Assembly: GCF_964355755.1 (NCBI RefSeq)
Contig: NC_092673.1
Coordinates: 6,634,001-6,698,000 of the forward strand
Direction of reading: 5' to 3'
Source of the DNA: Antedon mediterranea
Lineage: Eukaryota; Animalia; Echinodermata
DNA: 64,000 nucleotides
Shown: positions 2,688-49,000 of the stretch, piece after piece
Layout: each line of letters starts with the position of its first letter
How positions within the stretch are numbered: the stretch's first letter is position 1
Translations under genes and position numbers: made by a program
The notes under the pieces: model-generated
Seen by the model: the letters and a program-made list of their open reading frames with translations, nothing else
What the model was told of the DNA's origin: nothing
Databases searched by the model: none

Positions 2688-4600
2688 ATGAAGAAGGAAG
2701 GATCGGATGTTTGGGTATGTAATTATTGCAGTGTAATAAAATGTACATACACGGATAACCTATAGCGTTTGTACGAAAACATACTCCTGTCACATGGTAC
2801 GTCAAAATGTCGACATACTTTCAGTTAATATTTCAACTCATGTGGCAGAATTAGGCTTTCGTACATTGGTCAAACTGACGAATACAAGTCTTATAGTTAA
2901 TATAATGATTAATGAAGGTCAGAATTGAGACATAAATACCGTTTGATTCTAATGCTCTGCCTACACTATCAAACTAGTTTGACAAAACAAGTGTGATGTG
3001 CCCAAATATGGTAGTGATATGCTTAAATATGGTAGTGATCATCACATCACATTTTGTTGTCACATAAAGTTTGATAGTGTAGACAGGGATTTAGAAATCT
3101 ACCGTTGTTATTATTAATGTGGGAAATGTATTATATTTCATAATTTAGGAAGTAAATCCATTTGAAACGATGGCGTCTCCTCATTTACAACCTAATCATC
3201 ATCACAACTTAGACAAGTTATTACAAATCATGGAAGCACAGCCAAAAGCAAAAAGTAAGTTTATTAAATATTACCAATGTATTTAGATTCATGGCATCTG
3301 ATTGGGGAATTGTACTTCTAATGCCAAAACACTAATAAATTGGACGTTTTCCACAAGATCTAGGTCTAATTAATCCTCGCCTTTCATGTGTAAAATGGAA
3401 AATCTGAAAAGGTCACTCTTAGACCTAAATATCGTACTGAAACAAAATGCCAATTTAGTAGTCGTCTTTGATCGTGGGAGACGATTTTATAAGTCTAATA
3501 AATGATGCAAATATCTACAAAAAAAAACACTACACATTCAATTCAAAGGAAAAAAAACATAAACAAACTACAAAATATTGGCTGGATTGGTTAATTAACA
3601 TGGCTAACTTTTTCAATTATCTAGAAAACAAAGGATGTGGTCGCTTTGGATTCATCGAAAAGCGACAGCTTCGCTGTCACACTAATACCTGTAAGAGAAG
3701 ACTGTGTTTACGTTCCAGCAATCATTGCCGGCTTTGCGAAAACCACTTCTGCAACAAGCACTCTATGCATGTATCTCAAGAAACAATTATATGTAAGTAG
3801 GCTTAGACTGTTATATATACGCCAAGAAGAAGTAAGCATACGTACGCCTTAGTGTTGTTTTCAGTTATTGAGACTTTCACGTTCTGTATAAATTTAAAGG
3901 GTTAACTCCGGGTTTAAACTTTGTTATATTTTACAACCACATTGTTAAACCACACTTATTTTCCGAAAGCAGAACGAACTTTTTTAAATAGCATAGGCCT
4001 TACAATACGAAAAAGTCATGAGCACTACTTTTTTAATGCCCTTGTTCACAAGCTTGTTCTGCACATTACGTCATTATATTAATTAATCAAGCATAACGGA
4101 GAACAACTAGCGCCATCATTATATTTATATTTGGCCTCTGTATTGTGTACTAATGTTAATAGATGTTTTAATTTCTGTTTATTAATTAATTCTTTTATCA
4201 TATTGTTGATGTTCTCTACTTAGCACTGAAAGTGTCATTCAGTGTCAGTATATACGTTTGGTTAGTATAGTTAGTTTGGTTATTTATTGTATAGGCCTAC
4301 ATTACTTAATTATTATTGTTCTTTTACTTAGTTCCCCTGCAAAATTACCTAGGCAAGATGGAGTTAAAAAACAAGAACATTAAGGTGTGTCTAGCTTGTA
4401 ACATCCGAGTGAAAAATGAGTGGCAGACATACCAAAGAGAAAGACGAAATGAATTTAAAATACAGGCACAACCAGACAATGAAATAGAAGAAAGAGGCGC
4501 ACTGAGACGCTGTTTTTCTCGTCTTTACCGATGTTGTAATTCTACGACGGATAATGAAAATAAAACTACGGATAACAATCCGTATTCTATAAATGCCTAA
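2688..4600 (+). CDS. Degenerate FYVE-type zinc-finger protein with C-terminal Cys cluster, paralog 1 (spliced, ~189 aa)
   Basis: Hand-assembled exons 2688-2714, 3149-3254, 3625-3792 and 4332-4600, all GT-AG, phases 0/1/1, 570 nt in total. Translation: MKKEGSDVW-EVNPFETMASPH...LDKLLQIMEAQPK...CHTNTC...SSNHCRLCENHFCNKHS...KVCLAC...RRCFSRLYRCCNS...*. Zn-ligand spacing matches the FYVE fold (HCRxCxxxFCxx[CH]S...[RK]VCxxC). The last three exons align with paralog 2. The first exon and start codon are less certain; an internal Met at 3170 is conserved in both copies. Confidence 0.8.
2953..3090. mobile_element. Short MITE (TIR GCTCTGTCTACACTATCAAAC) with internal AAATATGGTAGTGAT repeats
   Basis: Inverted termini. 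Related copies lie at about 27640-27770 (inverted), 46211-46343 and partially 38930-39000. Confidence 0.65.
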
Positions 4601-4670
4601 TTGTTTCATGTAGGGACGGCGCGGATTTCAACACTGACAGTGTCCATGCGAAATTGCATTAAATGGAAAT

Positions 4671-4995
4671 GAAGAATAGGACTTTCAAAGTAGTGTTAGT
4701 GTGCTTCCTAAAGAGCATATTGGTTAGAAACCGAAAATACAAAAAAAAAAACAAACAGTATTTCAATTATATTTATAACAAAAAACTACAACAAATTTAT
4801 GAAAAATTAATACCAATCGTGTTCTAAGCACTTTCGTGGAGGGAAGGTAAAGCAGATTGCATTTTTACGAAATGAATTTGAATTGAAGAATTTGGCTCTC
4901 AAAGTAGTATAGTGTGCTTCCTAAAGAGAATATTGGTTAGACACAGAAAAGATAAATAAACAGTAGGCCTATCTCAATGATATTTATAACAAAAT
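4671..4995. repeat. Local ~120-bp diverged duplication downstream of FYVE-like paralog 1
   Basis: The block GAAGAAT..CAAAGTAGT..AGTGTGCTTCCTAAAGAG.ATATTGGTTAGA...ATATTTATAACAAAA occurs at about 4671-4785 and 4886-4995. Confidence 0.75.
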
Positions 4996-7578
4996 TTAAA
5001 ACCTCAATGCGATTACACAAATGTTTTGTTTAAATTATGATATAAAATAAGTTATTTAAATCTAGGCCAATCAATAATGAAGTGATTATTGATAATAATA
5101 ATAATAATAATTATTATTATTATTGATTCATTAATAAATAGAAAGGGTTTAGACGGTTTTGCTTGATTATTACATAGAGCTACTATTTTTGTATTGGATA
5201 TTACGATTGAGGCTGTTGTAGTTAGTGTTAAAGAAGTTCGCTTGTAAAATAACTTATTTTAGTATACTATAGGAGATCATGCTGATAAATAACTTATATT
5301 ATTATCTGCAACATTTTGTACCCAAATTTACAATTTTATAATATTCTAATTGTATTTTTAAATAAAATGAGAATCTTGAATTGGCTATCAATTTTTCATA
5401 TAGGCCTAACCCGATTAAATTATGTGTTGTGAATTTTGGAGAGTTTCTTTACTTTCTTTACATTTCTTTTTCAATTCGGTACTCCTTTACGTAGATATTT
5501 ATAGGTACCTTAGATTATTGTTTGTGACTTGAATTTCTCTATAACCCATTTTTCAGTAGGCCTAAGTCTGCTGACTTTCTACATATTTTTTTTCCGGGAA
5601 GTGTTTATTTGTAAGTTGATTTCATGTGACGTTTGTACGACATGTTTTTGATCGGTACAATATTGCCTATGTTTAAAGAAAGTTTAATTAGGCCTGTAAT
5701 GTATTATTAATTTACAGGTTGTAGCAATGAACATGAATAAACACAAAAATGCTAATGTTTTTACATATAGATGACGTATCTCACAAGTTGAGGGCGCTAT
5801 GGCAGGTAAAATAAAAACCTGGTAAAAATAGCCACTGCGTCACCTCTTTTCCAAATACGCCCAAAATCTTTCGTATTTTGCCAACATTTGTATTTCGTTC
5901 GGATGCTCACCATTTTTTGACAATTACCCGTAAAACAATAAGATAAAATGGCCGGTCAATCACTAGGGGACACACTCCTATAATTAAGGAGACACCACCT
6001 GTGTTTGGTCGGTCCCACACGAAGGTGTCCCCGTAATAGTGGTTCTACTCATTAATCAAAAAAAAAAAAAAAATTTACCACTGTATTATTAGTTTTCAGC
6101 AGAAACTTAATTTGAATGAAATGAATGAATTTAACTGAGACAATTAGTGTGTTCGTATGCACTACTTAGTCTCTCACAACAGTCAATTTTGTAAGGTTCT
6201 TCAACATGGCTGTACCAAATTGAAATGTGTTTCAAAAGGGATTATAGAGACACAATGAATGTGGTAGACAACAAGATCCGTGCAATTATTAAATATAGGC
6301 TTACATTCTACATTACAGAATTACAGTACTGTATTTAAATGCACGCATGATACCTTGATTTTTTGTTTCCTATTGTCAAAAGGTAAGAATGGTACTATTC
6401 TGGTGTCACTATAAGTTTAATACGTTTCTCGTGATAATATGACGTACTAACTAGCTAAACGTTTCACGCTTCATTGATCAATCAATAGTATTAAAACATT
6501 GTATACAATAAACAAAGGTAGCTATGAAGTGAGAATTCGACGTTTCGATATTTTATTATTTTCAAGAATCATTTATCATTTACCATAACATTTATTTACA
6601 TTTACATTATTTACATTATTTACAAAAGTGTCATCCAATAAACAACAACTGCTGTATAAACCCTCTATCCTATCCCCATCCCCAAATTTAAATCGATACA
6701 TTACAGTATATCATTACTTTACACAAATGAATACAAAACAAAATATAGTAAAAGTTTTTTAAATAAAATCAACTGATGATAAACACAGCTAATTTCGAAA
6801 ACTCACTAACCCCCCTCCCCCACCCCTTTTCAATTTACCGTACTGAATGTAGCAATGTAGATAACATAGTTATTGAGTCATAGTTTTGTTATTTTAGCAT
6901 TCAATATTAATATTTATTTTCTACAATATCTACCGTACTGGATTTCTGGTAGTACAGGCCTAATCCCTTGTTCTATTATCGTTTACCTGGGAATTCCTGT
7001 AGACCGCGGTTCTGGAATTAGCAGGAAGTTTCTTAGTCACTTGATTTGAAAGTTTAAAAAGTTCAATCACAAACGGATTTATAGGGGATTTTTTGTAGGT
7101 AATACCATACATTCAACATTTTTTAGCATCTTACAGTAGCTTAATCATGATGAAATAAGCTAGGAAGACGCCCACATTGGGTAGGCAATGAACTCAATTT
7201 AGGGAAACATCATTTACATATCTGATACCATGTGATTGTCATACACCTTATGATATATCTTGTATTATATATTTTAGCCATTGAGTTTGCATTTTTTGTG
7301 GGTCCATGCGTAAAAAAATGAAATAAACTAGTAATTTGTATCCTACTATAATTCAAACTAATTGAAATGGATAAACAGATCAGGTTGTACTATAGGTCTA
7401 TTAAACGCCAGCAAAAACCATGCTCTACAATGGTTGGTTTCCACTAGAGACGCAACGCAAGGACGTGAGGCAACGTAAGTGAGTTGACCAATTACAAGCG
7501 ATGGATTATTTGAACTGTCGCTTGTCATTGGTCAATATGCTTGCGTTGCGTTGACGTACGTGCGTTATGTCCTAGTAA

Positions 7579-7757
7579 AGCGTGGTTCCCACTAGCGACG
7601 CAACGCAAGGACGTAACGCAACGCAAATGAATTGACCAATCACAAGCGATGGCTTATTCGCTTGTGACTGCTAACTGTCTATAACTTCGCTTGTCATTGG
7701 TTAAAACGCTTGCGTTGCGTTTACGTCCTTGCGTTACGTTCTAGTGGGAACCAAGCT
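7579..7757. mobile_element. PIF/Harbinger-like MITE (TIR AGC[G/T]TGGTTCCCACTAG, TWA flanks)
   Basis: Palindromic ~180-bp element nearly identical to 39400-39578. A related degenerate copy abuts it at about 7432-7575. Confidence 0.8.
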
Positions 7758-9378
7758 TTACTAACAACGACTCTCCGTAAACGTAGCCCTATGAGACCAC
7801 CAACAAAAGGTAATTAACCAATCATTTCAGACCGATAAAAATATAAAACAGCCTCTGGGCTAACTGTATATTGATACCGCCAACGTTAACGTACAAGCCT
7901 AAACCGACAATCAATAAAATATAATGATCATATCAAATCAGAAACAAGTCAATCGTAAAATGGAATAAATTAATTTGTTTTTGTAATAAATAGCTAAACT
8001 ATTTTCGCCTTAATAGAATACCACATAATGTAGGCCCTATAGTTATAAAGACGAGGAAAGAATATGAAATTTCTGTATGACATTTGTTACAACAACGCAA
8101 TACTGTACTAAACACTAACATTTAGTCAACAGGTATATAATAGCATCTTCTGTGGTGAGCTTGTATACTTGATATACATGTCCTGGTTTTCTTGTATACA
8201 GACTCATGGCAAGCCTTACGTAACATTATATATTATATAACGAGAACAACAAGTCGAAGGAGTAGAAAGAAAACAAAAATCTTTCATGATAAATGGGTTT
8301 CACGGGTAAGTATAGGCATCAAAAGTAGGTGCTCTGTTTACCTTTAGGGCCTATTACTTGAATTGGCCTTCGTTAATTCCCATGTTGTGTTGTTTATGAA
8401 TATTACGTATTTCCTATGGGAAAGCGATGATTCTTATGTCGTTTATTTACTTTTGTTTTAATTGACGTGTCTATAATGTGTTTTACAATAACAAGGCCAT
8501 ATACATGGCTGCAGTCGCGTGCACAAATTTGAGATAGTGTTTACCGACCGACCGACCGACCAATCGAGCTATAGAGTCGTGTTACAAAAATAGAGACGCC
8601 CTCAGCCACTCCTACAATCCCCACACCTTTTATAAAATACCACAACTCATAAATAGAAATATTAAAATACCAAAAGAATAAGTCAATTATAATGAGTTCT
8701 ATTATAATCCAATAACCATGGGTGGCATGCGGATTTATTTATTTTGGTATAAAAACACACTATAAAAATATTAAATATGTGAAAGAAACAAATAAAAAGA
8801 TCAGATACCAGTTATAGGTCTACTAAATTGTGGACAAACTTATTATTCGCCTACATAATATCACTGTAATTATATTGCCTAAAATTTAAAAAAATACAAA
8901 TGAATATGTAATTGGTTTGAAAATTAAATCTATTACTATTTATCAATTATTTACAAGTCTCAAGGTACTCCCAAACGCACCGAGGAAGGGTTAGTACAAG
9001 CTCCGTCGCAACCTCTCAATCTTTCTGGCTGTTTTACTTCATTGTTTTGATATAGCTATTGTCTTATTTTAGTTTTATCTACAATGTGATCCAGCCACTA
9101 ATACACACATCACTACCATTTTGTTTTCAGTAATTTTCCTTTTGACTTATAGGATAATATAATACCAGACATAACAATATTTAAAAAGAAAAACAACCTT
9201 CGGATTGTACTTGTCGGCCACGCTAGAGTTCTCATGTAATATTGTTATGGACGATTAATTTAATTCCTGTATGCTATTATTAGTCTTACGGAAAGTCCCT
9301 AGAAAAAGAGAGACGGTAGGTATCAAACCAGGATCACATGAAATCCTCATAATTATTGTTTTCCTACAGACAGGAGAC

Positions 9379-12300
9379 ATGGTAAGTTAAATATTACTTG
9401 TTTTACATATTTTGATTAATATTTTATCAGTATTGTTATTTGGTATTGAGTTTTAATTTTATTCTTGAGATATATTTACTGACTGAAGTCTCTATAGTTA
9501 GGTTATAGGGACCATCGTTGCTGGTTTGTAGGGACCATCGTTGCTGGTTTGTAGGGACCATCGTTGCTGGTTTATCTCAATAAGAATTTATATTCAACAA
9601 GAAATATTTCTTACAAAAAACGCGGCTCGACATTTTGACGTCACACTTTAATTATTATTCTTTTTTATCGGAAATAGGCCTAATGAATAATAGTAATAAT
9701 ACATTTATCATAAACAAAACTATAGTAATGTACATATTCCAGGGATGGGGAATTACTCTCTAAGGTCGTAGTGACCCGACCCACATACTAAATTAAATTA
9801 AAAGTTAATATAATTCAAACAAATTATACATTGCCTGTTAATCCGTATTTTGTATCAATATCATTAAGAAAGAATTATTAAAGCCACGAAGTAAACAAAT
9901 TGCAATTATTCTCGATAATAATAATTACAGTTTTTAGTAATATATTTTGTAGTATATCAACATTGTAAAATTCAATAAAATAACTGCCTAAAGGCGCGGC
10001 GCGAAAAACATTATTGTCAATAATTAATAAATAATAATTAGCTTGAGTTCGAATAAAAAAACTCCCAAGTTACCACTCAATAATAAATGTATACAACATG
10101 ATTCTTTTTGGGTAAATTATAATCGATTGGTTAAACATAAATCAAAAACAATACGCATGACATCAATATTAAATGGTAGAGTATCATCCGTTAGTCATCA
10201 AATTGCTCTTTTGGCGTTCCATATCCATAATCGGGAATTCCCCTTTTCTTTCTTATTTCCTATATGACCTCGCTAAAACAGTAGGCTACTATTACTTGCA
10301 TATTTAGGTCTGAGATGTAGGCTGCACCGATGTCTATCATGACTCCTTTGTTGCGGTAGGACTACATATTTTGTTATGAATTAATATGAACGTATATTGT
10401 AATAATGAATACATTTCAGAATTTAGAAATAAATCCGTTTGAAACGCCGATGGCTCTCTCTCATCCAGAGCCTAATCGCTATCAACTTTTAGACAAGTTG
10501 TTGCAGATAATGGAAGAACAACCAAAAAGTAAGAGCATGTTTATAACCATTAAGTAAGCTTTACTGAATCTTTATTGTATTTTCTAAAACATTTTTTTAT
10601 TGACATTCGTGATTAGGTCTACTAACACCAATCGTGTTCTTAAATGTGCACTAATAAGATAAAATAAGATAAGATAAATCTTTATTGCCATGAACACAAC
10701 AAGGCGAACATGAAATTGGTTTCTTCCCTTCGTTTGTCGCAACTAAAAAGTTTCTTAAAAATTGTGTGGCGTTTTATAAAGCCAAGGAACTGATGAAATC
10801 ATGTTTTATAGTTGTAACTTTTTGTTGGTCTTTTTTCTGGGTCCAGTGAGACAAGATCCGCTTCAAACGGGGCCTTATAATAATGTTTCTTCATTCGTAT
10901 ATTTTGTATACTTATGTCAATTGTCAAAATAATGAAATCAGATGGGTCTATTTATAGCTTAAAGTGAATTAAAACCACAGCATCATGTCGGTGATATCTA
11001 ATAAAGGGAAACCTGCACTCTCCATAAGAGAGTCACTTATTTTGAAAATGACGGACCTATGAAAAGGGTAAAGTGTAAAAATATGCCTTATTGGACGTCT
11101 TCGTTACAATAGACCTTTATATATGGACTTCAGGGGTGACCTACTGTATTACAACCAGAGTGTTAATGTGCAAATTACTATTCTATATAATTGACAAATT
11201 TCCCCATTGGGTGGACATTTTCTAACTGTTCTCCGGGCTTAGTAAAGGCTTTACATAAACATAAACTTTTGTATGCCTATAAATAATGTCTTTAACAACC
11301 TAGTTATATAATTTGTTTTTCTTGCCTAGAATCCAAAGGACGTTTTGCAGGCCTGCGTAGTAGAAATGTAACAACACGACTGGGTCATTGTTTCACAAAC
11401 ACCTGCACAAAAACGTTTATGTTCAATTGCAGTAACCATTGTCGTCTTTGCGAAAACACCTTCTGTGACAAGTGTTCTATGCTCGTATCTCCGGAAACAA
11501 TAATAGGTAATTAAATGTATTTATACAAACATTTATAAAAACAAAATACAAATATATTTTTTGAAATTACGGTACCTATGTTTGTTGCCATTTTGTCGAT
11601 CGCAGGGTGAGGAAAACCTTCTGCTTACAAAAATATAAAGCGCCTTTTCGATATTTTCGAACATTTTTTTTTTCTGATTTCTCAGAAACTGCTTATTTTT
11701 ATGATTTGTTTTGTTTGTACCTACTGAGGTAAATAGCAGAAAGAAAATCCTTGAGTATACCTCCACATTAATAGAGGTATTCAGGGGACATTACCAAAAA
11801 ACGAAATTGTTCGCTTAATATGGGTTTTCGCGGGGAAAAAACAAATGAACCAAAATGAACACTAATTTATCTGGACTCAAGAAATTGGGAAGAGTTAAAA
11901 CTTTGGCAGCCAAGGCATTATTAATGAATGTAAATTTTGGCACAATCCCTTTCTCTTAGGGTTCCCCTGAGTAGGGGCTGGCCGTATAGTATTAAAACAT
12001 AATAATATTGCCCTTAAATATTGTCCCCTTAAGAGAGGTGTCCCAAACGAGGTATATCCTTTATTAAAACATGGTTTTTTGTTAGGCTTTATGTTGGCTA
12101 TTTCTTTGAACAACAGCGCCTCCATTTACTATTATAAACAAATGATTTTTTTATGGACAGCTTCCATGATGATTGGCTACTCCCTGCAGCGCATATGAAC
12201 AAAAATGAAGTGCCTATTTTGGACAGATTTCTGCTAGAGTTTGTGAGCCATTTTTCTTACGGGTAGAGATTGTTTTCTGGTTTGGATAAGGGGTGGGCTA

Positions 12301-15300
12301 TTTGTTTGTTACGGAAACTGAATAAACCACGACAAATAAGTTATTTCTCCATACATAAACATTATTATTCTTCCTCTACAGTTCCTCTACACAAATACCA
12401 AGGCCATAAACAATTAAGGAATACTACCATCAAAGTATGTCAGGCTTGTAATGAACGAGTGCAAACAGAGTGGCAGATGTATAGCATAGATCTACGGGAT
12501 GGAATTCTAAGTAGAATACAGGTAGGCCTAAAACAGCTTTAATAAGCACATATGATACATAGGATATACCACTAATGGACCACGTGTTTCCTGCAATCAG
12601 TCAGACAGACACTATAAGCCTCCACAAATATAATGTTGTCATGAGTTTTACTTTTTGTTTAGTCATTGGTTTTCGTTCATGTGGTCCATAGATTACTGTG
12701 TTATTATAGTGGCACTGTTAGCTAAGTCCTTAATTGTTAACGGCGAGGAAGCATGTCCATACTTCGGTTTGGGTTCTGGCATGAACTTACACATTCTCAT
12801 TTTGCCTCGAAAGTTTCGGGTTATTTTTTTTTGCGCTTTACACATTCAAATCTATTAGTCATTATTGATTTAAATGAATGAGCTTTTAAAAGATTTGAAA
12901 AGATCGACGTCGCGAAGGTCTCCAAGCAATCAATTACCGTAGCGCAATTCTGGGTTGTATGTGACTTGGTATGCCTCATTCTTAACCGGTATGCCTCTTT
13001 CTTGGTTGTCCGGTATGCCTCATTCTTGGTTGTGCGGTATGCCTCATTCTTACTCGGTATGCCTCATTCTTGGTTGCCTGGTATGCCTCATTCTTGGTTG
13101 TCCGGTATGCCTCATTCTTGGTTGTCTGGTATGCCTCATTCTTGGTTGTCCGGTATGCCTCATTCTTACCCGGCGGTATGCCTCATTCTTGGTTGCCCGG
13201 TATATGCCTCATTTTTTCCCGGTATGCCTCATTCATGGTTGCACTGTATGCTTCATTTTGCCCGGTATGCCTCATTCTTGGTTGCCCGGTATGCCTCATT
13301 CTTGATTGCCCTGTATGCTTCATTCTTGCCCGGTATGCCTCATTCTTGGTTGCCCTGTATGCTTCATTCTTGCCCAGTATGCCTCATTCTTGGTTGCCCT
13401 GTATGCTTCATTCTTGCCCAGTATGCCTCATTCTTTCCCGGTATGCCTCATTCTTGGTTGCCCGGTATGTTTCATTCTTTCCCGGTATGCCTCATACTTG
13501 GTTGCCCTGTATGCTTCATTCTTGCCCAGTATGCCTCATTCTTTCCCGGTATGCCTCATTCTTGGTTGCCCGGTATGTCTCATTCTTGGTTGCCCTGTAT
13601 GCTTCATTCTTTCCCGGTATGCCTCATACTTGGTTGTCCTGTATGCTTCATTCTTGCCCAGTATGCCTCATTCTTTCCCGGTATGCCTCATTCTTGGTTG
13701 CCCTGTATGCTTCATTCTTGGCCAGTATGGCCTCATTCTTTCCCGGTATGCCTCATTCTTGGTTGCCCGGTATGTCTCATTCTTGGTTGCCCTGTATGCT
13801 TCATTTCTTTCCCGGTATGTCTCATTCTTGGTTGCCCTGTATGCTTCATTTCTTTCCCGGTATGCCTCATACTTGGTTGCCCTGTATGCCTCATTTTTGG
13901 TTGCCCTGTATGTTTCATTCTTGGTTGACCTGTATGCTTCATTCTTTCCCGGTATGCCTCATACTTGGTTGCCCTGTATGCCTCATTCTTGGTTGCCCTG
14001 TATGTTTCATTCTTGCCCGGTATGCCTCATTCTTGGTTGCCCTGTATGCTTCATTCTTGGTTACCCGGTATGCCTCATTCACGGTTGGCCTGTATGCTTC
14101 ATTCTTGCCCTGTATGCTTCATTCTTGCCCTGTATGCTTCATTCTTGCCCTGTATGCTCCATTCTTGGTTACCCGGTATGCCTCATTCACGGTTGGCCTG
14201 TATGCTTCATTCTTGCCCGATATGTCTTATTCTTGCCCGGTATGCGTTTTTTTTGTGTTTCACGGTTCCATACAAAAAAGTTATTGATTCCCGAGATTAC
14301 TCATAATTTCATTGGGACACAACAAAAGTGGTAAATGAAGCGGTTATATAACTCATTCTCCAATCCAAAGAAGAAGCGTGAACATTTGCTTACTTACCCC
14401 ATCGAGTAAATTGTACTGATCGTCTAAATCTTGAGTCAGGTAAAGCATGGATCTATCCGTGACAGCAGCATTATTTTACCGGCATGAAGAAGAGAATTGA
14501 TATTGCCTAAAAATTGGAAAACAATATGTATCCTTGTTATACTGTATTTCGTTCATTCGTAACATAGTTTAGTCAGTCTCTTCATTCTGTCATATATGTC
14601 ATCACTTCTAATATTTCTAAATAGACATTAGGCCTATATATTAATTTAAAAACAGATCAAACAAATTATGTCTTTTTTAAACCCAGAAACTTGACGACCT
14701 GAAAAAACACGCGGAGTGGAATATCGACACATACAATACTGCAATCAGAGAAGCAAGGTAATAAATACAATTTAAAAAAAACACAGAATTGGTACAATAC
14801 AGAGAATCACATTCATTCAAATTCATTTTAGACATGTATTATCCATAGAATACAATGATATTGCATGTGGTATGTAAGAAACGAAGAAGTTCTTTTGACT
14901 TCCTTCATTGATCAACCAACGCTGACTAAAGCTTGTTTTCATGTCGACGTTATTTCTTTATAACACACCTAGGCACATGCTTGTCATTTGATTGGACAAT
15001 TGTGGGTCAGACCTACATGATATTAAATTTCTTTTATGTAGAGAGTGCCGTGTCGTTATTTCAAAGCAATTTCATAAAAATTAGCTTGATCGTCTGGATT
15101 ATTTTTATTAATTAGAACTTCACAGAAGCGTGGAATTAATTCAGTGAAAGATGAAACGTTATATTTCCACGAGACAAAGCCGAGTAAAACAATACTCATT
15201 ATAAGCACTTATATGGTATTAAATTTTGATTTGTCTCCTTGTCATTGGTTAACTTCGTTTGACGTGTCATGTTCCTCATTTTAACGATTTAGTTAAACAA

Positions 15301-16383
15301 TATTAAAATGGCTGTGTAACGCGTAGGTCTGAATATTGCCATTCTTCTTTGCTCTCGCGGCCAAAATTCAATGAATGTTTTTGTTTTTGCTTTTACAGAG
15401 AAGGTACGAGGCACCATAAGCATAAACGGTTACATCAAATGCGCGACCAAATTGATTCAATTCTTGACGAGTATGATAAAACTTTGTAAGTATGTGTAAA
15501 CATTGAAAATCGGTTCCGATAAGGACGGATGGTGACGATAATGTAGACGATTATGGTGACGATAATGGTAATGTTGACGATAATGGTGACGGTGATGATA
15601 ATGGAGATGATAATGGTGACGGCAAATGGTGATGGCGACGATAATGGTGACGGTGCCGATAATGGTTACGGTGACGATAATGGTAACGGTGACGATAATG
15701 TTGACGGTGAAGGTAATGGTGACAGTGACGATAAGGATGAAGGTCACGAAAATAGTGATAGATGACGATTATGGTTACAGTAAAGGTAACGGTGACGATA
15801 ATTGTGACGGTGACGATAATTATGACGGTGACGGTGACGACAATGGTGACGGTGACGATAATTATGACGGTGACGGTGACGACAATGGTGACGGTGCCCC
15901 ATAATGTGACGATAATTGTGACGGTGACGATAATTGTGACGGTGACGATAATGGTGACGGTGACCATAACGGTAGTGATAATATTCATGAAGATCGTGTT
16001 GATAATTGTGTTGATAATAGCGATGGCGATGACATTACCATATGGCAACTGTAGCCATATATACGTGTTTTTAGTCGCAACTGTAGCCATATACATGGCT
16101 ACAGTTGCGACTAAAAACACGATTTGATTACAGATACACGCTGGTTCGTCAACATACAAACAAAATGCATCTACAATACAATGGGGATTTCGACCAATAT
16201 AGAACAGATTTAGATCGACTAAAACGCAATATATATGATGATTTAAGTTTACAAGAGAGAAGTTGTATAAACGTAAGAAGTTGTTTTTCCCGTCTTTGCC
16301 GTTGTTGTTGCTGTTGCTGCTTCAGTAAATCTACAGACTACGATTATATGGACAATAACTATAACTGCAGTACATTGTTATAA
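9379..16383 (+). CDS. Degenerate FYVE-type zinc-finger protein with helical segment and poly-Cys tail, paralog 2 (spliced, ~278 aa)
   Basis: Exons 9379-9381 (ATG|GTAAGT), 10420-10528, 11330-11506, 12382-12521, 14687-14757, 15399-15485 and 16134-16383. Phases 0/1/1/0/2/2 are all consistent; 837 nt with no stops. Contains LDKLLQIMEEQPK, CFTNTC, CSNHCRLCENTFCDKCS and KVCQAC, then KLDDLKKHAEWNIDTY...RLHQMRDQIDSILDEYDKTL..., ending SCFSRLCRCCCCCCFSK...LL*. The N-terminus is uncertain; a possible extra in-frame exon lies at 8202-8305. Confidence 0.82.
9506..9573. repeat. 23-bp direct repeat x3 (TAGGGACCATCGTTGCTGGTTTG)
   Basis: Three near-perfect tandem copies in the first coding intron of FYVE-like paralog 2. 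Confidence 0.9.
12965..14245. repeat. Intronic minisatellite, mixed ~23-bp and ~18-19-bp units (GGTATGCCTCATTCTTGGTTGCCC)
   Basis: Continuous tandem array between exons 12521 and 14687; generates spurious ORFs in several frames. Confidence 0.95.
15527..16035. repeat. Degenerate (GGTGACGATAAT)n / GAY-triplet simple repeat
   Basis: Low-complexity array in the last intron of FYVE-like paralog 2. Confidence 0.9.
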
Positions 16384-27200: not shown

Positions 27201-30160
27201 TCGGGCAAAACAAAAAACAAACTTCCCGCTGTACTCTTTCTCTAAATGCTATTTGTGTGTGACTCGATACAATTGGTAGGTCTACTGAAGATTTCCAATT
27301 TCGTACTAAAATATATTGACACAAACTTCCACATTAATTTAGTTTCACTTTGTACTTTGTTTACATTCTTTCTACTACAAGTTTGTATTATATAATTGCA
27401 AAAGTGCATTGTTAGTTTTTGATAGCATTTGAAAAAAATGAACAGATTAAACAATGAAAAGAACACATCTAATCAGTGAATTGGGAAAATATTTTCATAG
27501 AAAAAAGAGGATTTCTCGATTAAGCTTGGCTTAGCAACTTGTTTCGAAAACTATTAGCCGCGGCCAAAAAATAAGCCGCCAAACATTTTTAAATGTATTA
27601 AATTAATACGCAGATTACAACAAACATGATTTAGCCTAAAACTCTGTCTACACTTATCAAAACAGTTTGATGCCCATATATGGACATGATGATGTCATAT
27701 CACTACCATATTTGGGCATGTCACTACCATATTTGGGCAATTCACACTTTTTTTTGTCAAACATAAGCCTGGATAATGTATCATTTTTGTATATTTTGTA
27801 ATACCCAGGTACCATAATGCGTAATATATTTAGTTAATGATTATATAAGGGAGACTTAACATATTGTAATCACGTGTTGCAATAATCACATGCCACAGGT
27901 TACGACGAGAAAAATAAGAATGCTGTAGAGATCAAAGGTGAAAGTGAGGCCGGAGGTTATTGTTTATTGAAATAAAACAAAACGAAAGAAAATTCCCGAA
28001 TCAAGATTTAACGATGGTTGCACGCGCCAGGGGTTTCCCCAATCGGTGTCAAATGGGAGGGGACGGCTGCTCGGCCCTCCTACTGGCGACACCAACTGAC
28101 TATGTAAACAAAAAATATCTTCGCTTCTTGTCTCATGAAGTTTGATTGACGTTTAATTAATGAATGGTCAGACGGAACGCAAGAACGAAGACACGCAACG
28201 CAAGCGAGTTGACCAATGACAAGCGACAGTTCGATCCATCAATTGTGATTGGTCAAATCACTTAGTTGCGTTACGTACGTCTCTGTGTTGCATTAAGCAT
28301 TCAATATCAGGTTTAAATTAATATTTCATTCTATTTTTGAGTTATTACCATTTCGATAAGGTAAAATCTCGTAAACGAGTTTCGTCAAAACACGATTCCC
28401 CCATGTCCAACATATTTTTCCTTTTCTGCTTTCCTGTATTTATCATTTTCTGCGTGGTCTGTGACACTTTGCAGGAATTTAAACCCGGAAATTGACGGAT
28501 ATTATTAAAAGTATTGCCTAAAATAAACTCAAGGATTTTAAAGTCAAGTTATTTAATTCTCTCTACACACTACTGTACGTCGAAATAATTCCATTTCGAA
28601 ATGCATCCAACAAGTATCCCAGGGCATACACATGTACAGTAACTAATTATTATCCACGCAGATTGATTGGTCAAATTACCTGTGCAATGTATTGTATCGT
28701 ACCGTACTTTAGTTTGTGCGTTAAACGCATGACCCGATTTGTATGGTACGTTTTCGCGCTGCTGCTCTAGCCAGCTACGTCCCATGAGTACTACTCATTC
28801 ATAAGCAAGCAGCAGTTTGCGACTTTGTAAACTCGACTATAATTTATAGATCCCAGCTGCTGGACCCAAAAAACGTCTCGGAAAAGACAAGAAAGAATTT
28901 TCGTGAAAAGTCACGTTGTTGCATGCCAACAGGTTGAGGTCACACACACACAGCACATTCAAGTTCTAAATTGACCATTTTTAAATGGGCATGTGAATCA
29001 TAATTAAAGACTATCTTTGATTTGTATGTATTTTTGCGATTAAAGGACATCTTTTTTAATAATTAATCATAAATATATCTGAAGAAAGAACAATGATTAA
29101 TTATAAAATCTTGAGCAACGTTTTTTGTAAGAAATATTTTTTTCACTTAACGCAAAGACGATGATACAACAGCTTCCCATCAGCAGTTCAAATGAGCCAT
29201 CGCGTTGTGATTGGGCTAAAATGTGCCTAGTTGCGGCGCGCTAAAGCTTGTTCCAACTTGGACGCAACGCAAGGACGATGCACGCTACAAAGTAATTTGA
29301 TCAATCACGACGCGATAGGTCATCCGAATTGATTGTAATTGGTCACCTTACTTCTTGCGTCCGGCCGGGTGAGAAAACAAGATGTAGGTTCATAATGTGC
29401 ACTTGTTCAATCAAGGGATAGTTTAAACCCTCCTCATTTAGTGAACCCATGTCAGCCTCAATCATTAAACACAAACTAAATCGCATAAACAGTTGCAGAA
29501 TTTGTCAGAAAATGATAACAAAACAATACGGAAGTAAATAAGGGAAGACAGTCGTTGACTCAATGAGACTGAACCAGTTTCAATTGTCACCTCCGCTTAG
29601 TGGTTTTACATAACGCGACACGAGTTATTTGACCGAAGTTTTTATTTTTCTTGTATGACTTATAACCCATAATACATATTCCATATATTTTTTTTGCAAA
29701 TCATTCTTTACCAAAGTACGAACGACTTACCATTCATACATGAATTAACGCACTGATAAATGAACTAGACTAAAATTCTATGACGTATTTCCACCTGGCG
29801 GTGAACCACGCACATTTTTATGTGCATGTGTATTTTTCTTCAAACGAAAATGTACGGCGGTACACGTAAAGCATGTTCATGACTTGCGCACTATTGAGTA
29901 GACTACCCTACTTGCTTGCCCCAATTCTGTATTATTGTTTTTTTTTATGTTAGCCCACCCGTTGTCATTTCAATTTTTTTGTCTGGAAAAGGTATTTTGT
30001 GAGCTCATTATCATAGATATGAAACGCCATATATGCAAAAATATTTATCTTTTTACTTATATTAATTCGAATGCGGTCTAGAACCTAGACAATTAATTGT
30101 TCGTTCAACGAGTATGACAGACACAATGTTAAATATGTGATTTTTTTTGCAGGATATATA

Positions 30161-31276
30161 ATGGATCTATTTGAAAATACAACTTCTTTCTACTACTACG
30201 ACGACGAGAACGTGACATCAACAACGATTGAGCCATCTGTGGTTACGTGGGCTCCATGGGAACGTGTAATTCAGGTTCTCGTTCTAGGAATATTTGTCGT
30301 CACTGGTACATTTGGAAATACTCTTGTTATACTGTCTGTTATACTTTCTCGTAGATTACGTACAGGAACGAACGTTTTCGTCGTAAATCTAGCCGTTACG
30401 GACTTAGCAACTGTTCTTAATTTACCATGGAATATGTTGGCGTTTTTGAGTGAGGACGAGGGATGGCCGCTCGCACCGGGTGTATGTAGCTTTGCGTCCG
30501 CAATGGCTATTATCTGTATTGTTAGCAGTTTGTATACGCTGGCCTTGATTGCGATCACGAGGTTTGTTGTGATTACGCGTTCGGCGCGGGATTATCGGAA
30601 TATATGTTTATTCCGCACATCTAGTTTGATTGGTCTCCTCGTGTTCGTCTGGAGCATATCAATATTTACTGCGTTGATTCCACGGATGTTTGGAGTAGGC
30701 CAACTTGGATACGACACACGCTACAGCACATGCTCATGGGATTCGTCACATCCCAAGTCTGCCGTTTATAGTTTTATCATTTCTGCTATACTTTATCCCG
30801 TTCCGTTTGTCATCATCATATATTGTTACATACGAGTGTTTACACACATTCGGAAACACGTAAAAACAATGAAATCGGACCTAACTGCATCCGGGCCGCT
30901 CGAACATTCGTCCTCAACCAACGAACCAACGTTAAGGACCATCAACAGAAGTAGACAAGCGTCCACCCTTCATCAATCCACCAGGAAACGGTTAAGTAGG
31001 ACTCAAGTTGAGGTCACCAAGAACTTATTTTACGTCGTAGTTCTGTATGTTGTTTGCGCAACTCCGTATAACGTTTGTCTTCTGTTGCCAGGCGACGGTG
31101 CGATCAAAGCAACCCCGTATGCCGCGCTTTTCTTACTGTGTAATAGTTGTGTAAATCCGCTTGTATACGCCACCAAACATCCGTTTTTCAAAACTGTGTT
31201 CAAAAGCATTTTAACGTGTAAATGTTCAAAAATTCCAGATAAAGCGCACTTTTTACGATCAATAAGAAGATGGTAA
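30161..31276 (+). CDS. Class A (rhodopsin-like) 7TM GPCR, melatonin-receptor/GPR84/moody-like, single coding exon, 371 aa
   Basis: Seven hydrophobic segments with GN (TM1), LAVTD (TM2), TM3 Cys and IAITRF (DRY variant), TM4 Trp, ECL2 Cys, TM5 P/Y, CATPY (TM6) and NSCVNPLVY (TM7). An acceptor ttttttttgcag ends at 30152, just before ATG 30161, so the ORF-track start at 30137 is intronic. Subfamily assignment is inference. Confidence 0.93.
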   Translation: MDLFENTTSFYYYDDENVTSTTIEPSVVTWAPWERVIQVLVLGIFVVTGTFGNTLVILSVILSRRLRTGTNVFVVNLAVTDLATVLNLPWNMLAFLSEDEGWPLAPGVCSFASAMAIICIVSSLYTLALIAITRFVVITRSARDYRNICLFRTSSLIGLLVFVWSISIFTALIPRMFGVGQLGYDTRYSTCSWDSSHPKSAVYSFIISAILYPVPFVIIIYCYIRVFTHIRKHVKTMKSDLTASGPLEHSSSTNEPTLRTINRSRQASTLHQSTRKRLSRTQVEVTKNLFYVVVLYVVCATPYNVCLLLPGDGAIKATPYAALFLLCNSCVNPLVYATKHPFFKTVFKSILTCKCSKIPDKAHFLRSIRRW

Positions 31277-43069: not shown

Positions 43070-46000
43070 TTATACTTTCTGTTTCATAGTTTTCCTCTTT
43101 TTTTTCCGACAAATTGCAAGATATATAAATACACAAATAATTATACAGACGCTATACAATAGGACACACATGCTAACATCCATATTTGTTACATTGTAAA
43201 AATTGCTAGACTTATATTTTAGCCTATCGTTAGCAAGCCGCACCTCTAGCTGCTTTTCTAGTTCTCTTTTCATAACCTCTTGTTTCAATTTTATATCACC
43301 TAAGTCTAAAAACCTTTCCGGTGGATCCTTCTCTATAAACTTGGGAATTTTTCCTTGAGGAATCAACCGGTCAAAGACAATATTCCGGATGCTGTAATAT
43401 TCCTTCAGGAATCTAAGGACAGCCTTTTTATCCCATTCATCCTCATGGCCTTTTCCTAGACGGCAGGTTTGACAGAGATCCGTTGATGGGAACTGGATCT
43501 TGGGATGAGCTGGATCTTCCGACATGTCTCCTTTCAGTCGCAGGTTGACACTATTGTGGATTTTCCAGAGGTATAGGATGGCAGTGTCGTATGAAGTGAC
43601 TGTTGAAGACATCAGTTTTGATTCTTTAGCAAAGTTTTTAACACATTCTTTGCAGGTGAAGAATTCTTGTATGTAGCCTTTCATAGCTTGCAAGACTTCT
43701 TGTGAATTGCCAGTTGGATCTAATAATAATAAAAGGAATAATACATTGAATAAACTAAAATATTCTATAGAAAGAAAAAACAAACAGGGGCCTACTACAA
43801 GCCTGTCGGCTCGAAAACCCAAACTATCATCAGAGATCAGCAGAAGAAGTGATGCATAACTAGCCTAGCTCACCTAAAACCTCTTACATACATGTTATAT
43901 CTTTAGCCTATGAAGAATAACAGAATAGCACATTCACAACATTAATTTGTGAAAATGCAGTAATTATTAAGTCTGTTTACTGAATAAAAATAAATTCTTG
44001 CAAGGACAAATTTTTCTTCCATTTAAATTTATGTTGACACCACAGTTTTTTGTAGCAATGATTATATTATATTATTCAAGTTCAAGTTCAAGTTCAAAAA
44101 ACATTTATTTATTCAACAATGGCATTATACAGTATAATATAATTATAGGTGTGTACATAAATGAAAACATAGTAATAAGCCATCATTTTGGGTCTTCTCT
44201 AGAAGACTGGGTGATCTCTTCAGTCACAGACTGGTCTCACAGTGGCTGTGATGTACTAGTACACCGGGGTAATGCCCTACTCATCTTGAAAGATGTACTA
44301 GGTTCTTTAAAGTGCACATGAGGTAGATGTGTACACTGGACCTACAATTTATAGTTCCTTATCAGAGAAGACTCGTTCTTCCACCAGAACCATGGAGCGA
44401 GTGAGCCTTGAACCTTTGATGATGTTATGGTTACGTAATTACAGTTCCACTGTCTTAACCGCTCGACCAGTCACTCGCTAGATACATTAAAAAGTAAAGA
44501 AGATTCAAATATGTCCTCACTTTGCTTATTAATCTTTGCAGCACTGACGGTGAGTGTATGAAACAGAGTCCATAAGCTACAAGGGTAGCCTCTGTATCTA
44601 GGTGAGCTGCCTAGACATCCTTCCCACTTCACTACATGCGGTAAAACAGCTTTAGAATCCTTGAGAAAAAAAAAGTGAACCGATTGTAATATTAGCAACT
44701 ATTTGAAGAAACGTGCTTGATACAAGTTTTTCTGAAGTTAGAAATTGCAAGGAATTAGAAAAAAAAAAGGGTTTTTGTAAATGAATTGGAAAATTGGATG
44801 TTTACACTGGACCTCCAACTTTAAGTCCTTATCTGAGCAGACGATGTTCCGTCAACATAAATGGATTTATGCACCAGGACAGGAAACGCTGGATGACGGT
44901 ATTTCACACTAAGCCCTGGCTACTTTTGGACTGCGTATGCCCCAATCTCCCGTCCACAATTTTCTTGGGACAATAAACTATATTATTTGTTCTCGCCTCA
45001 AAATGAAAAAAAAAACCCTATTATTCTCAAATATCTAATTTGATTTTGGATTTTGTAACATTATATAATTACTTAATGTTTTGTTTACAAAAATGAACAT
45101 AAAACTGATTTGTGGAGGGTCAACAGCACAATAATGGGATGGTTATTTGCTGATCGCTCCAAAGAACACAGACGCTCTGTTCACCACCTTCCTCTCGTTC
45201 TGATGTGATTGAAGAGAGTCTCAAACTTGTGCCAAAAGTGTGGTGTAGTGCGAGTGGCTTGGCCACTTAACTCGACAGAAATCATGAGAATGCATATTAT
45301 GCAAATTTTTCTATTCTAAAGAATACTCACTTTTTCTGGATCATAGTTTTCATTCACAAAGTCCAACCACTCGTCAGATGTGATCGACGGACGTTTTTGA
45401 TCCATTAACCAAAAGTCAAGGCTCTCTAAAAACGAGCTTATTTGACTTCTGCCAGGAAAATACTAAACAAAAGAAGAAAAATATGTTTGTATTGTAAAAC
45501 AATGTAGGTCTCAGTAGGTATTTACACATCTGAGAAAAGCTGAAAAAATGAAATGAAATGTTAAAAAAATATTGTAATGACCATTATTGTACAGGGACAA
45601 AAAGACTACACACTTTTAAATTTCAGTAACAAGTAAAGTTAACAACATACAGTATTATACAAATAATGAATGTTTATGAGTGTAATGGTACAAATAATGG
45701 CATTAGGTGAATGATGAAATGGATATATCACCAAGGCGAAGCCAAGTTGATATTAAACCTTTCATCATTCACCAAATTTTCCAAAAATAAATTATTAATA
45801 TTATATAAAATTGTCTGACAAAATAAAAGTGTGTTTGAAAAGCCTTTAATAAAGTTATAAATCACTGCAAATGACAGAGTATAGTTCCAATGGCCTCAGA
45901 GTATGAAATTGTGAATATTCTGATTGCATTATCAATGAAATTTACCAAAACATTACGTCCAAATTCAGCCTAAGGGGGTGGGATGATAGCACACACAAAT

Positions 46001-49000
46001 AGGAAGGACTATAGTCATTCATATAGGATATTATAAACTGTAGCCTTACTTTACTGAGAACTGCCACAAAGTTGCGGAGAGCCACCAGGGCGGTTCCTTC
46101 AATAGTTTCTTTTAGAGGCACCTCTTGCCTTAGGGCATATGTCAACGCTGATTCAAGATCTTGCATGTGTACTGGAGGTCTGAAATAGAATGAGAACAAG
46201 CAATGTATAAGGCTCAGTCTACGCTTTCAAAATAGTTTGACAAGTGTAATGTGCCCAAATATGGTAGTGATATGACATCATCATGTCCATGGGCACATGA
46301 CATTTTTTTGTCACATAAAGTTTGATAGTGTAGACAGAGCTTTATGCAAGCCAAGTCCTATAGTATTTAAGAAAATAGTACAGCTATCCTACTACGTACA
46401 TACTCAGGATCCTAGTCTATAGAACAGGCTACTGAGAGTCAGCTATAGTGTAAATACCTGTACTACTATGTTATAGTACAGTAGAACCCTGCTTTCTTTT
46501 CTAGAAAGCAGATTGCAAATGATATAAGCCAGGACAGAAAAAGGACAACAGCCGTAAGAAGGAATATTCTAAAACTCACCTAAAGCATGCATCTTTTTCT
46601 TGCTAATAATATTGGATGACTTTATAGAAACCCCAAGTGCATCTTTTTACGCAAATCTACATCATGCGTCCTTTACATCGACTTTTGTGGATGCGCGATC
46701 TTGTTTTAAGAACTGCACATCAATTTTTTTTTTTCCGCGAGTGAAATATATTTCTAAGAAAATGTTTGTTTTGACAATTGAAAACAGTTTTATAAAAGTA
46801 TATAAAAATGTCTTTTACACGCTTGGTTTAATTCTCGTTTTCACAAATTTCAAAAAGTTTTATTTGTATAATATTGTATTTCAATATAAAGTACTTTACT
46901 CAAAATGGTTTATGACAATTTTAACACAATTTAGCAAACACTATGAACACATGTTTAAAACCAATTTAAGGCTTATATTATAGCGTGCATTAAAAAATTC
47001 CAGCTAAAATGGCCATCGATGTAAAGGTGGAAGAAGGGTTTTTCTCTTAAATATTAAATAATAATAATGTATATTAACTTACAGTGTGTTACTTTTCCTA
47101 ATAAGTTCTTGGCGTTCAGCTTCTACCTCCTGTTTCTTCTTTTTAACAGCGTCCCAAGCAAACTTAGTCTCTACGCCAACATCTATTTTTTTATCAGCAA
47201 CTACTGAGAGATAAATGATTATGTTTATTAAATTAGTAATAATAAAACTTGCATAAACTACAGGGGACTTTGTTTAATAAGGGTGACTCAAAACAGCTGA
47301 GGCTGACATGCTTGAGGCGCTCAACATTGAAAAAACAGGAACTTATGTTTGCCTCTCTCCACCTAAGTATACAAATACAAGTGTACTGGATTATGTTTTC
47401 ACACATGTTCGTTGTGAGGTGGTTTCCCGAATCTGTGTATGACCAACTAGCGTTATTGTCACCGGCTAGTCATCCATTCATAGAAGTACTGATGTAGTAG
47501 CCTACCTGTACGGAGACCATAGAATGTGACCCGAGGCATGACTAACTACGACTTTAGATGATAGAAAGTTGAGAAAAAATGTTACGAGTAGTTGTAAGAC
47601 ATGAAGATGTTTATGAAATTATGTCAATAATGTTTACACACTAGGCATACAAATAGTAATGTTTGTTAGTAAAAATAATTTTGAGTTAATCAGAATAAGA
47701 TATAAGGAAGAAAAGCAAAGAGACTATGGAGCGGCTATTCCTGAATATACAATACTAAGTATCGTAGATTTAAATTATAAATTTTAGGCGATCTTGTCAA
47801 AGGTCAAGCGCCTATAGCCTGCCACGTTTCGATATTCAATATTGAACTTGATGTTTAATCCAAAAATAGTCGGGGTAATAATGTGAAGCGCTATATAAGA
47901 ATCATATTTTGCACATGAAAGCAAAATAAGACATAAGTCATAAATTAAAAAAATTCCAATTCATGTCTGATTTCATTTCACTATTATAATACAGAACAGT
48001 AAATCAGCAATTGCAGAATGGATATGCTATTAGGAGGCCTATATTGTGCTTATAAACTATCATATGAGGTTTAGGGAGTGGAGTAGAAATGACGCAATTT
48101 AAATAAACCATGGATTTAATCTACAACAACAATGGCTTTGAACTAGCAAGACGTGCATAGTACCGGCTCTCTGATTTTTATGGATGAAATCGATGCTAAG
48201 CTTCAATCAATCATTGTGAAACTTAAAGATACACCGTCTATTCATGTCAAGACCAATCTCATCAGTGAATTCACTTTTGATGAATTATTACAAGCCAGAA
48301 AAGTCATATTTGAGGCTGCCAAGTGTAAGCGAGGAAAGTGCCAGTGGATAGTCTAAAGTATATGGCCGCATTTGTCTATTAGCTAAGCATTTTACTAATG
48401 GTTAAAAGCAAAAGTAAATACTTTATTCATTTTTATGGCAAATCCCATTTTCAATGTACAGATATCTCAAGTTGGTGAAATTCCAGGAGATTTATGAAAA
48501 CCATACCAAAACAAGAGAGGGGGCTATAACAATTGGAAAATAAAACAAACCATAACACCAACTACTCAAATTTGATAGAGGGCTCAAAATAAAAAAGATT
48601 GTGTATTGGCAATTACCAAATTTGGAAGGTAAATCAGTATTTAATAATAAACAATGTATAATATAACAAAATGAATTTCCAAGTGGTATTTGCATTGTAA
48701 ACCAATGCAAGTGGTAAATATGAATTTTTGGGTTGGGCTAGAATTGACTAGTAAAAATTAGTAAATCCTGTATACCTTGATCATCTTTCTGCTGCCTTTC
48801 CATTCCTGGCATACCCTCCATTCCTAAAAAATTCCCTAAATCTTTGTTCGCTTCCGTGTTGCCATCATAATTCTGTATTTTTTCTTCTTCTTTATTTGTA
48901 GTATCTTCACCACCCGTTTCTGCTTTGTGTACAACCTCCTGTTTCTCTTTATCTTTTGGTAATTCTGGGTTATCTGACAAGCCTATCAAGCCTAGCAATA

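Follow-up and report, generated by a model that had tools for sequence, protein, structure and literature searches.

What are the two neighbouring spliced genes that encode a FYVE-like finger in the crinoid Antedon mediterranea, and from which gene, if any, do they descend? They lie in tandem on the forward strand of a 64,000-nucleotide (nt) stretch of contig NC_092673.1 (assembly GCF_964355755.1, positions 6,634,001 to 6,698,000), hereafter called the window, and are referred to as paralog 1 and paralog 2. An earlier note, made from the sequence alone, regarded them as a candidate undescribed protein family in which a finger blind to phosphatidylinositol 3-phosphate (PI3P) is combined with a C-terminal Cys tail of the palmitoylation type. 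We conclude that both genes are almost certainly truncated and diverged descendants of rabenosyn-5 (RBSN/ZFYVE20). They are not a family of unrelated origin, because they share with rabenosyn-5 intron positions, exons of 71 and 87 nt, and profile similarity flanking the finger. It is still the case that no named gene or paper with this architecture was found, but the architecture has a known source.

Descent from rabenosyn-5

When joined at GT-AG boundaries, the exons listed in Table 1 give a paralog 1 of four exons and 189 amino acids (aa) and a paralog 2 of seven coding exons and 278 aa. The two translations (P0002 and P0001, respectively) are identical in every letter to the A. mediterranea entries XP_071949090.1 and XP_071949091.1, both named 'uncharacterized protein'. 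The sole junction seen directly is 10528->11330 of paralog 2, which is spliced in one public contig of run X1, a run taken as RNA by guess only; DNA contigs of runs X2 and X3 continue through the introns. In a second X1 contig, the match begins exactly at acceptor 4332 of paralog 1 and is preceded by 350 letters. The paralogs are 53% identical (the same residue in 94 of 176 aligned codons), with dN 0.35 and dS 2.35; the resulting ratio, 0.15 over the 176 codons and 0.21 on a 134-codon core, is rough because dS is close to saturation. Both paralogs are intact and under purifying selection, and their resemblance is not due to chance. The spliced tandem pair described in the earlier note is thus upheld, as are the places of all the motifs it named, and the dN/dS ratio that it had proposed as a check is not near 1.

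A phmmer search of 1.84 billion representative proteins at E<=0.001 yields four proteins: those of paralogs 1 and 2, another Antedon paralog (P0003, XP_071949176.1, 165 aa) and the product of the Anneissia japonica gene LOC117106891 (P0004/P0005). Three of the genes belong to Antedon and one to Anneissia, which limits the family, for the present, to two crinoid genera. P0003 is not encoded in the window (best tblastn match 52-64% identity), and the 64 kb hold no additional paralogs. Word-based protein searches gave matches for 1 of 3 candidates, 0 of 819 longer proteins and 2 of 1899, these being the window's own proteins only, and sequence searches of the PDB yielded nothing beyond weak rows for FYVE domains and apolipoproteins. 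In P0003 and in Anneissia, the gene models stop at the end of the exon that matches the 71-nt exon of paralog 2, where read-through of the donor encodes Arg and then a stop.

The strongest evidence of ancestry is gene structure. The comparison set consists of 71 metagenome loci fetched by a short rabenosyn-type FYVE motif, none of them known to come from an echinoderm. Eight of the ten long open reading frames (ORFs) scanned from these loci pass both Pfam FYVE and Rbsn, and many loci have an upstream C2H2-type motif and C-terminal NPFs. A phase-1 GT donor stands 28 nt past the sixth zinc ligand in 41 of the 71 loci, and a phase-1 donor stands 31 nt past it in both paralogs; the extra codon behind the latter spacing is missing in P0003 and P0005. 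Of 14 loci examined, 13 have a FYVE exon of 162 nt and phase 1/1; in the paralogs this exon measures 168 and 177 nt, with the same phases. The exon that follows ends in phase 0 at an aligned residue in rabenosyn-5 loci and in paralog 2. Beyond it, a 71-nt phase 0/2 exon (8 of the 10 loci in which the region is covered) and an 87-nt phase 2/2 candidate exon (9 of 9) are both identical in length and phase to exons of paralog 2. Altogether, five consecutive intron positions, with their phases, are common to paralog 2 and rabenosyn-5, and two of these also occur in paralog 1. Note that the intron at +28 was compared with rabenosyn-type loci alone; the 71/87-nt exon pair lies outside the finger and is therefore not explained by a generic FYVE origin.

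Similarity outside the finger is modest in score and strongest in P0001 and P0003. In the profile-profile comparison by hhalign (A3 against A4), the match has a probability of 97.2 and an E-value of 3e-11 over 128 columns (residues 57-188), and extends past the finger. Against a profile of 17 rabenosyn ORFs, residues 106-195 of P0001 are aligned with one gap at 19.3 bits, and the LDKLL/LEKLL helix in front of the finger is aligned as well. The post-finger region alone scores 9.5 bits, which was matched by none of 2000 plain shuffles and by 4 of 2000 shuffles that keep the heptad pattern, while the pre-FYVE block was equalled in 1, 1 and 2 of 1000 shuffles for the three Antedon copies.

Structural searches are in keeping with this. 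The Atlas search places rabenosyn-5 at the top of the list for P0001, at TM 0.40; for P0002 it is in second place but has the highest TM, 0.51. In a five-sequence fold model of low confidence, a region resembling FYVE is accompanied by a long helical hairpin (a single-sequence model reached a pLDDT of 45.7). Foldseek returned nothing at E<=0.001, with FYVE domains as its best rows, and VIA-align returned generic three-helix bundles, of which the best (syntaxin-6 Habc, Z 9.9, root-mean-square deviation 4.6, 103 residues aligned) is below the bar for helical bundles. A resemblance between the hairpin and Snf7/ESCRT-III was considered and rejected, as there is no Snf7 Pfam match and the exons match rabenosyn-5.

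The last exon of paralog 1 has no equivalent of the 71-nt and 87-nt exons. Since this gene passes from the position of the fourth donor of paralog 2 straight into the tail block, an internal deletion behind 4465 is suggested. We infer the following history: a part of rabenosyn-5 would have been duplicated in crinoids and have captured a new terminal exon, after which the gene would have been duplicated in tandem and paralog 1 would have undergone its internal deletion.

Membrane attachment, partners and rival readings

The finger retains eight zinc-ligand positions in FYVE spacing, all Cys in P0001 and seven Cys with a His at the sixth in P0002, a substitution also present in the Vps27 FYVE row. 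As the earlier note had observed, the WxxD motif is gone in the crinoid proteins and the basic R(R/K)HHCR motif is reduced to HCR (HHCR in P0003). The Cx4C spacing of the first Cys pair, also pointed out there, is confined to the three Antedon copies, and Anneissia has Cx2C. Of the Pfam comparisons that had been suggested, FYVE (PF01363) scores 26.7 bits for P0001 and 19.6 for P0002, under the gathering cut-off of 27.8, and FYVE_2 (PF02318, Rabphilin/Slp) scores 13.8 bits on one exon against a cut-off of 27.2, with the whole proteins not listed. The losses extend to other parts of rabenosyn-5. The N-terminal C2H2 finger is absent, with no Cys before residue 58 in P0001, only Cys50 ahead of the finger in P0002, and no Pfam match; the Rab4/Rab5-binding Rbsn domain (PF11464) is found in neither protein at E<=10 and is present in 8 of 10 comparison ORFs; and the C-terminal half, with its NPF repeats, is lacking. 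On these motifs, PI3P binding is very probably lost. Because one of the papers on RFFL discussed below credits, in its available part, a finger of this type with PI3P binding, motif loss is no proof of PI3P blindness. Five rabenosyn-5-like ORFs of the comparison set (L005, L013, L020, L028 and L064) retain the Trp motif but not the basic residues before HHCR. Among rabenosyn-5-like genes, the PI3P site may have been eroded more than once.

Three elements overlooked in the earlier note are an N-terminal NPF, a basic linker in front of the finger and, in paralog 2, the helical hairpin. Counted over the 20 residues that directly precede the finger, the net charge is +6, +7, +8 and +5 for the four crinoid genes, and an invariant Phe falls in this stretch, whereas 22 rabenosyn linkers have a mean charge of +0.2 and a maximum of +3, with a WxxD/E-type motif in 19. 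The balance slightly favours a linker that would bind anionic membranes. The NPF is followed by Glu in all three Antedon copies. It may be inherited, since 5 of 34 rabenosyn loci (L016, L028, L031, L038 and L040) place an NPF close to the N-terminus, ahead of the C2H2 finger. Acidic-flanked NPF is described as an EHD ligand in the accessible part of PMC3498075. Binding of the crinoid NPF to EHD/Eps15-type proteins could be proposed, if tentatively.

A further element is the C-terminal tail. The six consecutive Cys of paralog 2 (residues 253-258) are encoded by a TGY repeat. The Arg/Cys block is the only part of the last exon of paralog 2 that aligns to paralog 1 (blastn, 33 nt, 85%), and when windows are ordered by hydrophobic moment it stands at 2 of 176 and 7 of 265, among the most amphipathic of each protein. 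Clustered Cys beside basic and hydrophobic residues are the rule in cysteine-string anchors such as CSP/DNAJC5, SNAP-25 and CYSTM. The likeness to these anchors is one of composition only, and the tail exons match no Pfam family. Comparison of the terminal exon with the next rabenosyn block revealed no similarity (598 and 140 of 1000 shuffles were equal), and the exon is foreign relative to that block. The earlier suggestion that the tail resembles an S-acylation site finds support in the shared amphipathic block, and the tail is probably S-acylated. As the genes are modelled, it does not define the family, contrary to the earlier proposal: only the two window genes, among four gene models, have it, and the basic linker is common to all four.

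Taken together, these elements suggest PI3P- and Rab-independent membrane adaptors for EH-domain proteins, a reading of the sequence for which we put the chances at about even. The pre-FYVE helix, the FYVE fold and, in paralog 2, the helical hairpin are kept, and the PI3P-contacting and Rab-binding parts are lacking. Attachment to anionic membranes would depend on the basic linker together with the S-acylated amphipathic tail, and EH-domain proteins would be drawn in by the N-terminal NPF. A fuller version appears unlikely in all its particulars: in crinoids, rabenosyn-5 would have given rise to a lipid-anchored adaptor family whose PI3P/Rab address was exchanged for two elements, a polybasic patch and the S-acylated tail encoded by a captured exon; these would draw the EH-domain machinery to a membrane that rabenosyn-5 never visits. 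Tail-less copies or isoforms that read through the 71-nt exon would be the soluble counterparts.

Several points tell against descent from rabenosyn-5 followed by conversion into adaptors. The comparison loci include near-duplicates (L034/L048 and L032/L051), and the 87-nt exon is one of several AG-GT candidates in most loci. The Anneissia pre-FYVE block was equalled by 194 of 1000 shuffles, with the rabenosyn profile P0002, P0004 and P0005 reach only about 1 bit per block, and plain phmmer against the 1.84 billion proteins gives no rabenosyn-5 at its threshold. The five-sequence fold model is weak (mean pLDDT 55.6). Moreover, the P0003 and Anneissia models (P0004/P0005) are without the Cys tail, and the Anneissia copy has NPY instead of NPF and has lost the eighth zinc ligand.

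If the retained helices still bound what full-length rabenosyn-5 binds (Vps45, SNAREs or rabenosyn itself), the proteins could instead serve as decoys or modulators that hold these partners at another membrane. The retained region is the conserved N-terminal core of rabenosyn-5, and the LDKLL helix is the part best conserved between the paralogs. The accessible part of PMC11168701 describes a 247-aa Plasmodium rabenosyn-like protein with a PI3P-blind FYVE that still works with VPS45 and Rab5b. However, C-terminally truncated human rabenosyn-5, when overexpressed, left cathepsin D processing unaffected, according to the available part of PMC2185588. No Rbsn domain is found, the hairpin is lost in paralog 1, and the conserved helix upstream of LDKLL is replaced in the crinoid proteins. 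The Vps45 site of rabenosyn-5 presumably lies in this upstream segment. A decoy role is therefore improbable.

Basic linkers may also act as nuclear-import signals, and Cys clusters may bind metal, in which case the proteins would not be membrane adaptors at all. The linker is rich in Lys/Arg in all four genes, and nuclear pools of PfRbsn5L and of the protrudin FYVE are reported in the available text of PMC11168701. This explanation seems quite improbable in view of the invariant Phe within the linker and the presence of just three tail Cys in paralog 1. In addition, the tail Cys are on an amphipathic Arg/Phe/Leu helix, which is the usual setting of S-acylation.

A further alternative is that the genes are slowly decaying partial duplicates of little or no function, in which the six-Cys run arose by trinucleotide slippage. 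The TGY repeat would suit slippage, and the losses differ from copy to copy (the internal deletion of paralog 1, the early stop of P0003 and Anneissia, the zinc ligand of Anneissia). Against decay stand a dN/dS of 0.15-0.21 with dS >1.6, the preservation of open frames and splice sites, the presence of genes in two crinoid genera, and a spliced contig, which together make it very unlikely. Finally, an independent new family with a finger unrelated to any named gene, which the failure of sequence searches to find a named homolog and the Pfam FYVE scores below the gathering cut-off would allow, is largely refuted by the five intron positions in common, by the 71-nt and 87-nt exons, which have the same lengths in rabenosyn-5 and lie outside the finger, and by profile similarity both before and after the finger.

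Coordinates and other features of the window

Table 1. Coding exons of the two paralogs and other features of the window
Feature	Position	Strand	Basis
Paralog 1, first coding exon, 9 codons	2688..2714	+	Gene model; agrees with XP_071949090.1
Paralog 1, exon with NPF (3155-3163), LDKLL helix (3209-3223) and onset of basic linker; ends in phase 1	3149..3254	+	
Paralog 1, FYVE exon of 168 nt, phase 1/1; zinc ligands 1-6 (His as the sixth) behind the basic linker that replaces WxxD	3625..3792	+	
Paralog 1, fourth and last exon; zinc ligands 7-8 (4382-4399) lead directly into the Cys tail block (4505-4537)	4332..4600	+	
Paralog 2, start codon, closing a short exon	9379..9381	+	Gene model
Paralog 2, exon with NPF (10432-10440) and LDKLL helix (10489-10503); ends in phase 1	10420..10528	+	3' junction to 11330 seen in X1 contig
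Paralog 2, FYVE exon of 177 nt, phase 1/1; encodes zinc ligands 1-6 behind the basic linker	11330..11506	+	
Paralog 2, exon of 140 nt, phase 1/0; zinc ligands 7-8, onset of long helix	12382..12521	+	
Paralog 2, exon of 71 nt, phase 0/2; length and phases as in rabenosyn-5	14687..14757	+	
Paralog 2, exon of 87 nt, phase 2/2; length and phases as in rabenosyn-5; hairpin helix 2	15399..15485	+	
Paralog 2, terminal exon; helix, amphipathic Arg/Cys block (16276-16308), six-Cys run (16303-16320)	16134..16383	+	No rabenosyn-5 match
Intronless rhodopsin-family G-protein-coupled receptor	30089..31276	+	7tm_1, 145 bits
Reverse transcriptase ORF, 520 aa	32045..33607	+	RVT_1, 134 bits
Multi-exon gene, consistent with a QSOX sulfhydryl oxidase	43070..58258	-	Thioredoxin domain at one end, Erv1/Alr at the other
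Weak integrase SAM-like domain, with an overlapping ORF	59402..60151	-	E 3e-4
Short repeat with inverted ends, probably MITE-like	2947..3096		Very high read depth
Short repeat, probably MITE-like	~7440..7760		Very high read depth
Minisatellite array, paralog 2 intron 4	12969..14235		
Minisatellite array, paralog 2 intron 6	15529..15974		

Paralog 2 may have an alternative 5' form, since an X1 contig continues upstream as far as 10311, a position within the first intron of the model. The same intron has an in-frame ATG, at 10405, which could start a form of the gene that begins inside the intron. At position 10457, all three runs have C instead of T, which changes residue 14 of paralog 2 from Leu to Pro. 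Downstream of the stop codon of paralog 1 there is an internal duplication (4658-4783 and 4872-4994, 79% over 126 nt), and within it 4663-4713 is faintly similar to the exon-4 coding stretch (tblastn E 0.53).

Among the other features, we read the reverse transcriptase ORF as LINE-like, and the integrase-like segment is presumably a fragment of a DIRS-type tyrosine-recombinase retrotransposon. The two minisatellite arrays are built of 24-bp and 18-bp units.

Known systems and significance

Statements on published systems in this section follow the accessible parts of the sources cited. Human rabenosyn-5 has a C2H2 finger, a PI3P-binding FYVE domain and five C-terminal NPFs (PMC2185588). The crinoid proteins share with it and with yeast Vac1/Pep7 the pre-FYVE helix, the HCRLC core, the insert before the last Cys pair, the post-FYVE hairpin and an NPF, as well as the exon chain 1/1, 1/0, 71 nt 0/2 and 87 nt 2/2. 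They differ in being only 189-278 aa long, in their basic linker and foreign Cys-rich terminal exon, and in the absence of the C2H2 finger, WxxD, RR(K)HHCR, the Rbsn domain and the C-terminal NPF repeats.

The earlier note had not recognised the architecture as a named gene; the combination of such a finger with a palmitoylation anchor has a precedent in RFFL/CARP2, and a short rabenosyn-like protein with a PI3P-blind FYVE is described in Plasmodium. PfRbsn5L (PF3D7_1310300) of Plasmodium has 247 aa and no C2H2 finger or NPF repeats, and its FYVE stays off PI3P membranes (PMC11168701). It is likened to the crinoid proteins, as a short rabenosyn-like protein without C2H2, by its description and not by sequence. 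Unlike them, PfRbsn5L is a working rabenosyn, with a region resembling a Rab5-binding one and with VPS45 and Rab5b as partners, and a Cys tail is not mentioned in the accessible text. RFFL/CARP2 has a FYVE-like finger without WxxD, and its vesicle localisation requires palmitoylated Cys (PMC12211564, 10.1101/575241, 10.1101/2022.04.05.487156). The crinoid proteins resemble it and RNF34/CARP1 in the WxxD-less finger and in targeting by palmitoylated Cys, which is predicted here. However, RFFL and RNF34 are RING E3 ligases with an N-terminal Cys5/6, whereas the crinoid Cys block is C-terminal and there is no RING; neither FYVE_CARP1-2 nor RING gives a Pfam match at E<=10 in either crinoid protein. 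The targeting logic would be the same and the origin separate. By domain content, the crinoid proteins qualify neither as functional rabenosyn-5 nor as members of the RFFL/RNF34 group.

No paper on these genes, or on crinoid FYVE proteins, was found in a literature search whose coverage excludes most subscription journals and supplements, and the titles listed for lineage-specific rabenosyn duplication concerned Rab evolution or were unrelated; PMC4177245, available in part, served as background only.

The finding has a narrow reach, the genes being known to date from two crinoid genera, and its targeting logic is not without precedent. Nevertheless, four 'uncharacterized' proteins gain a parent gene by way of intron positions where sequence searches had failed, and the post-FYVE hairpin of rabenosyn-5, a region to which the Pfam scans assigned no family, emerges as a unit that can be retained on its own. 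If the proposed function is true, these genes would be a natural case in which the membrane address of an endosomal effector has shifted from PI3P/Rab recognition to charge and lipidation.

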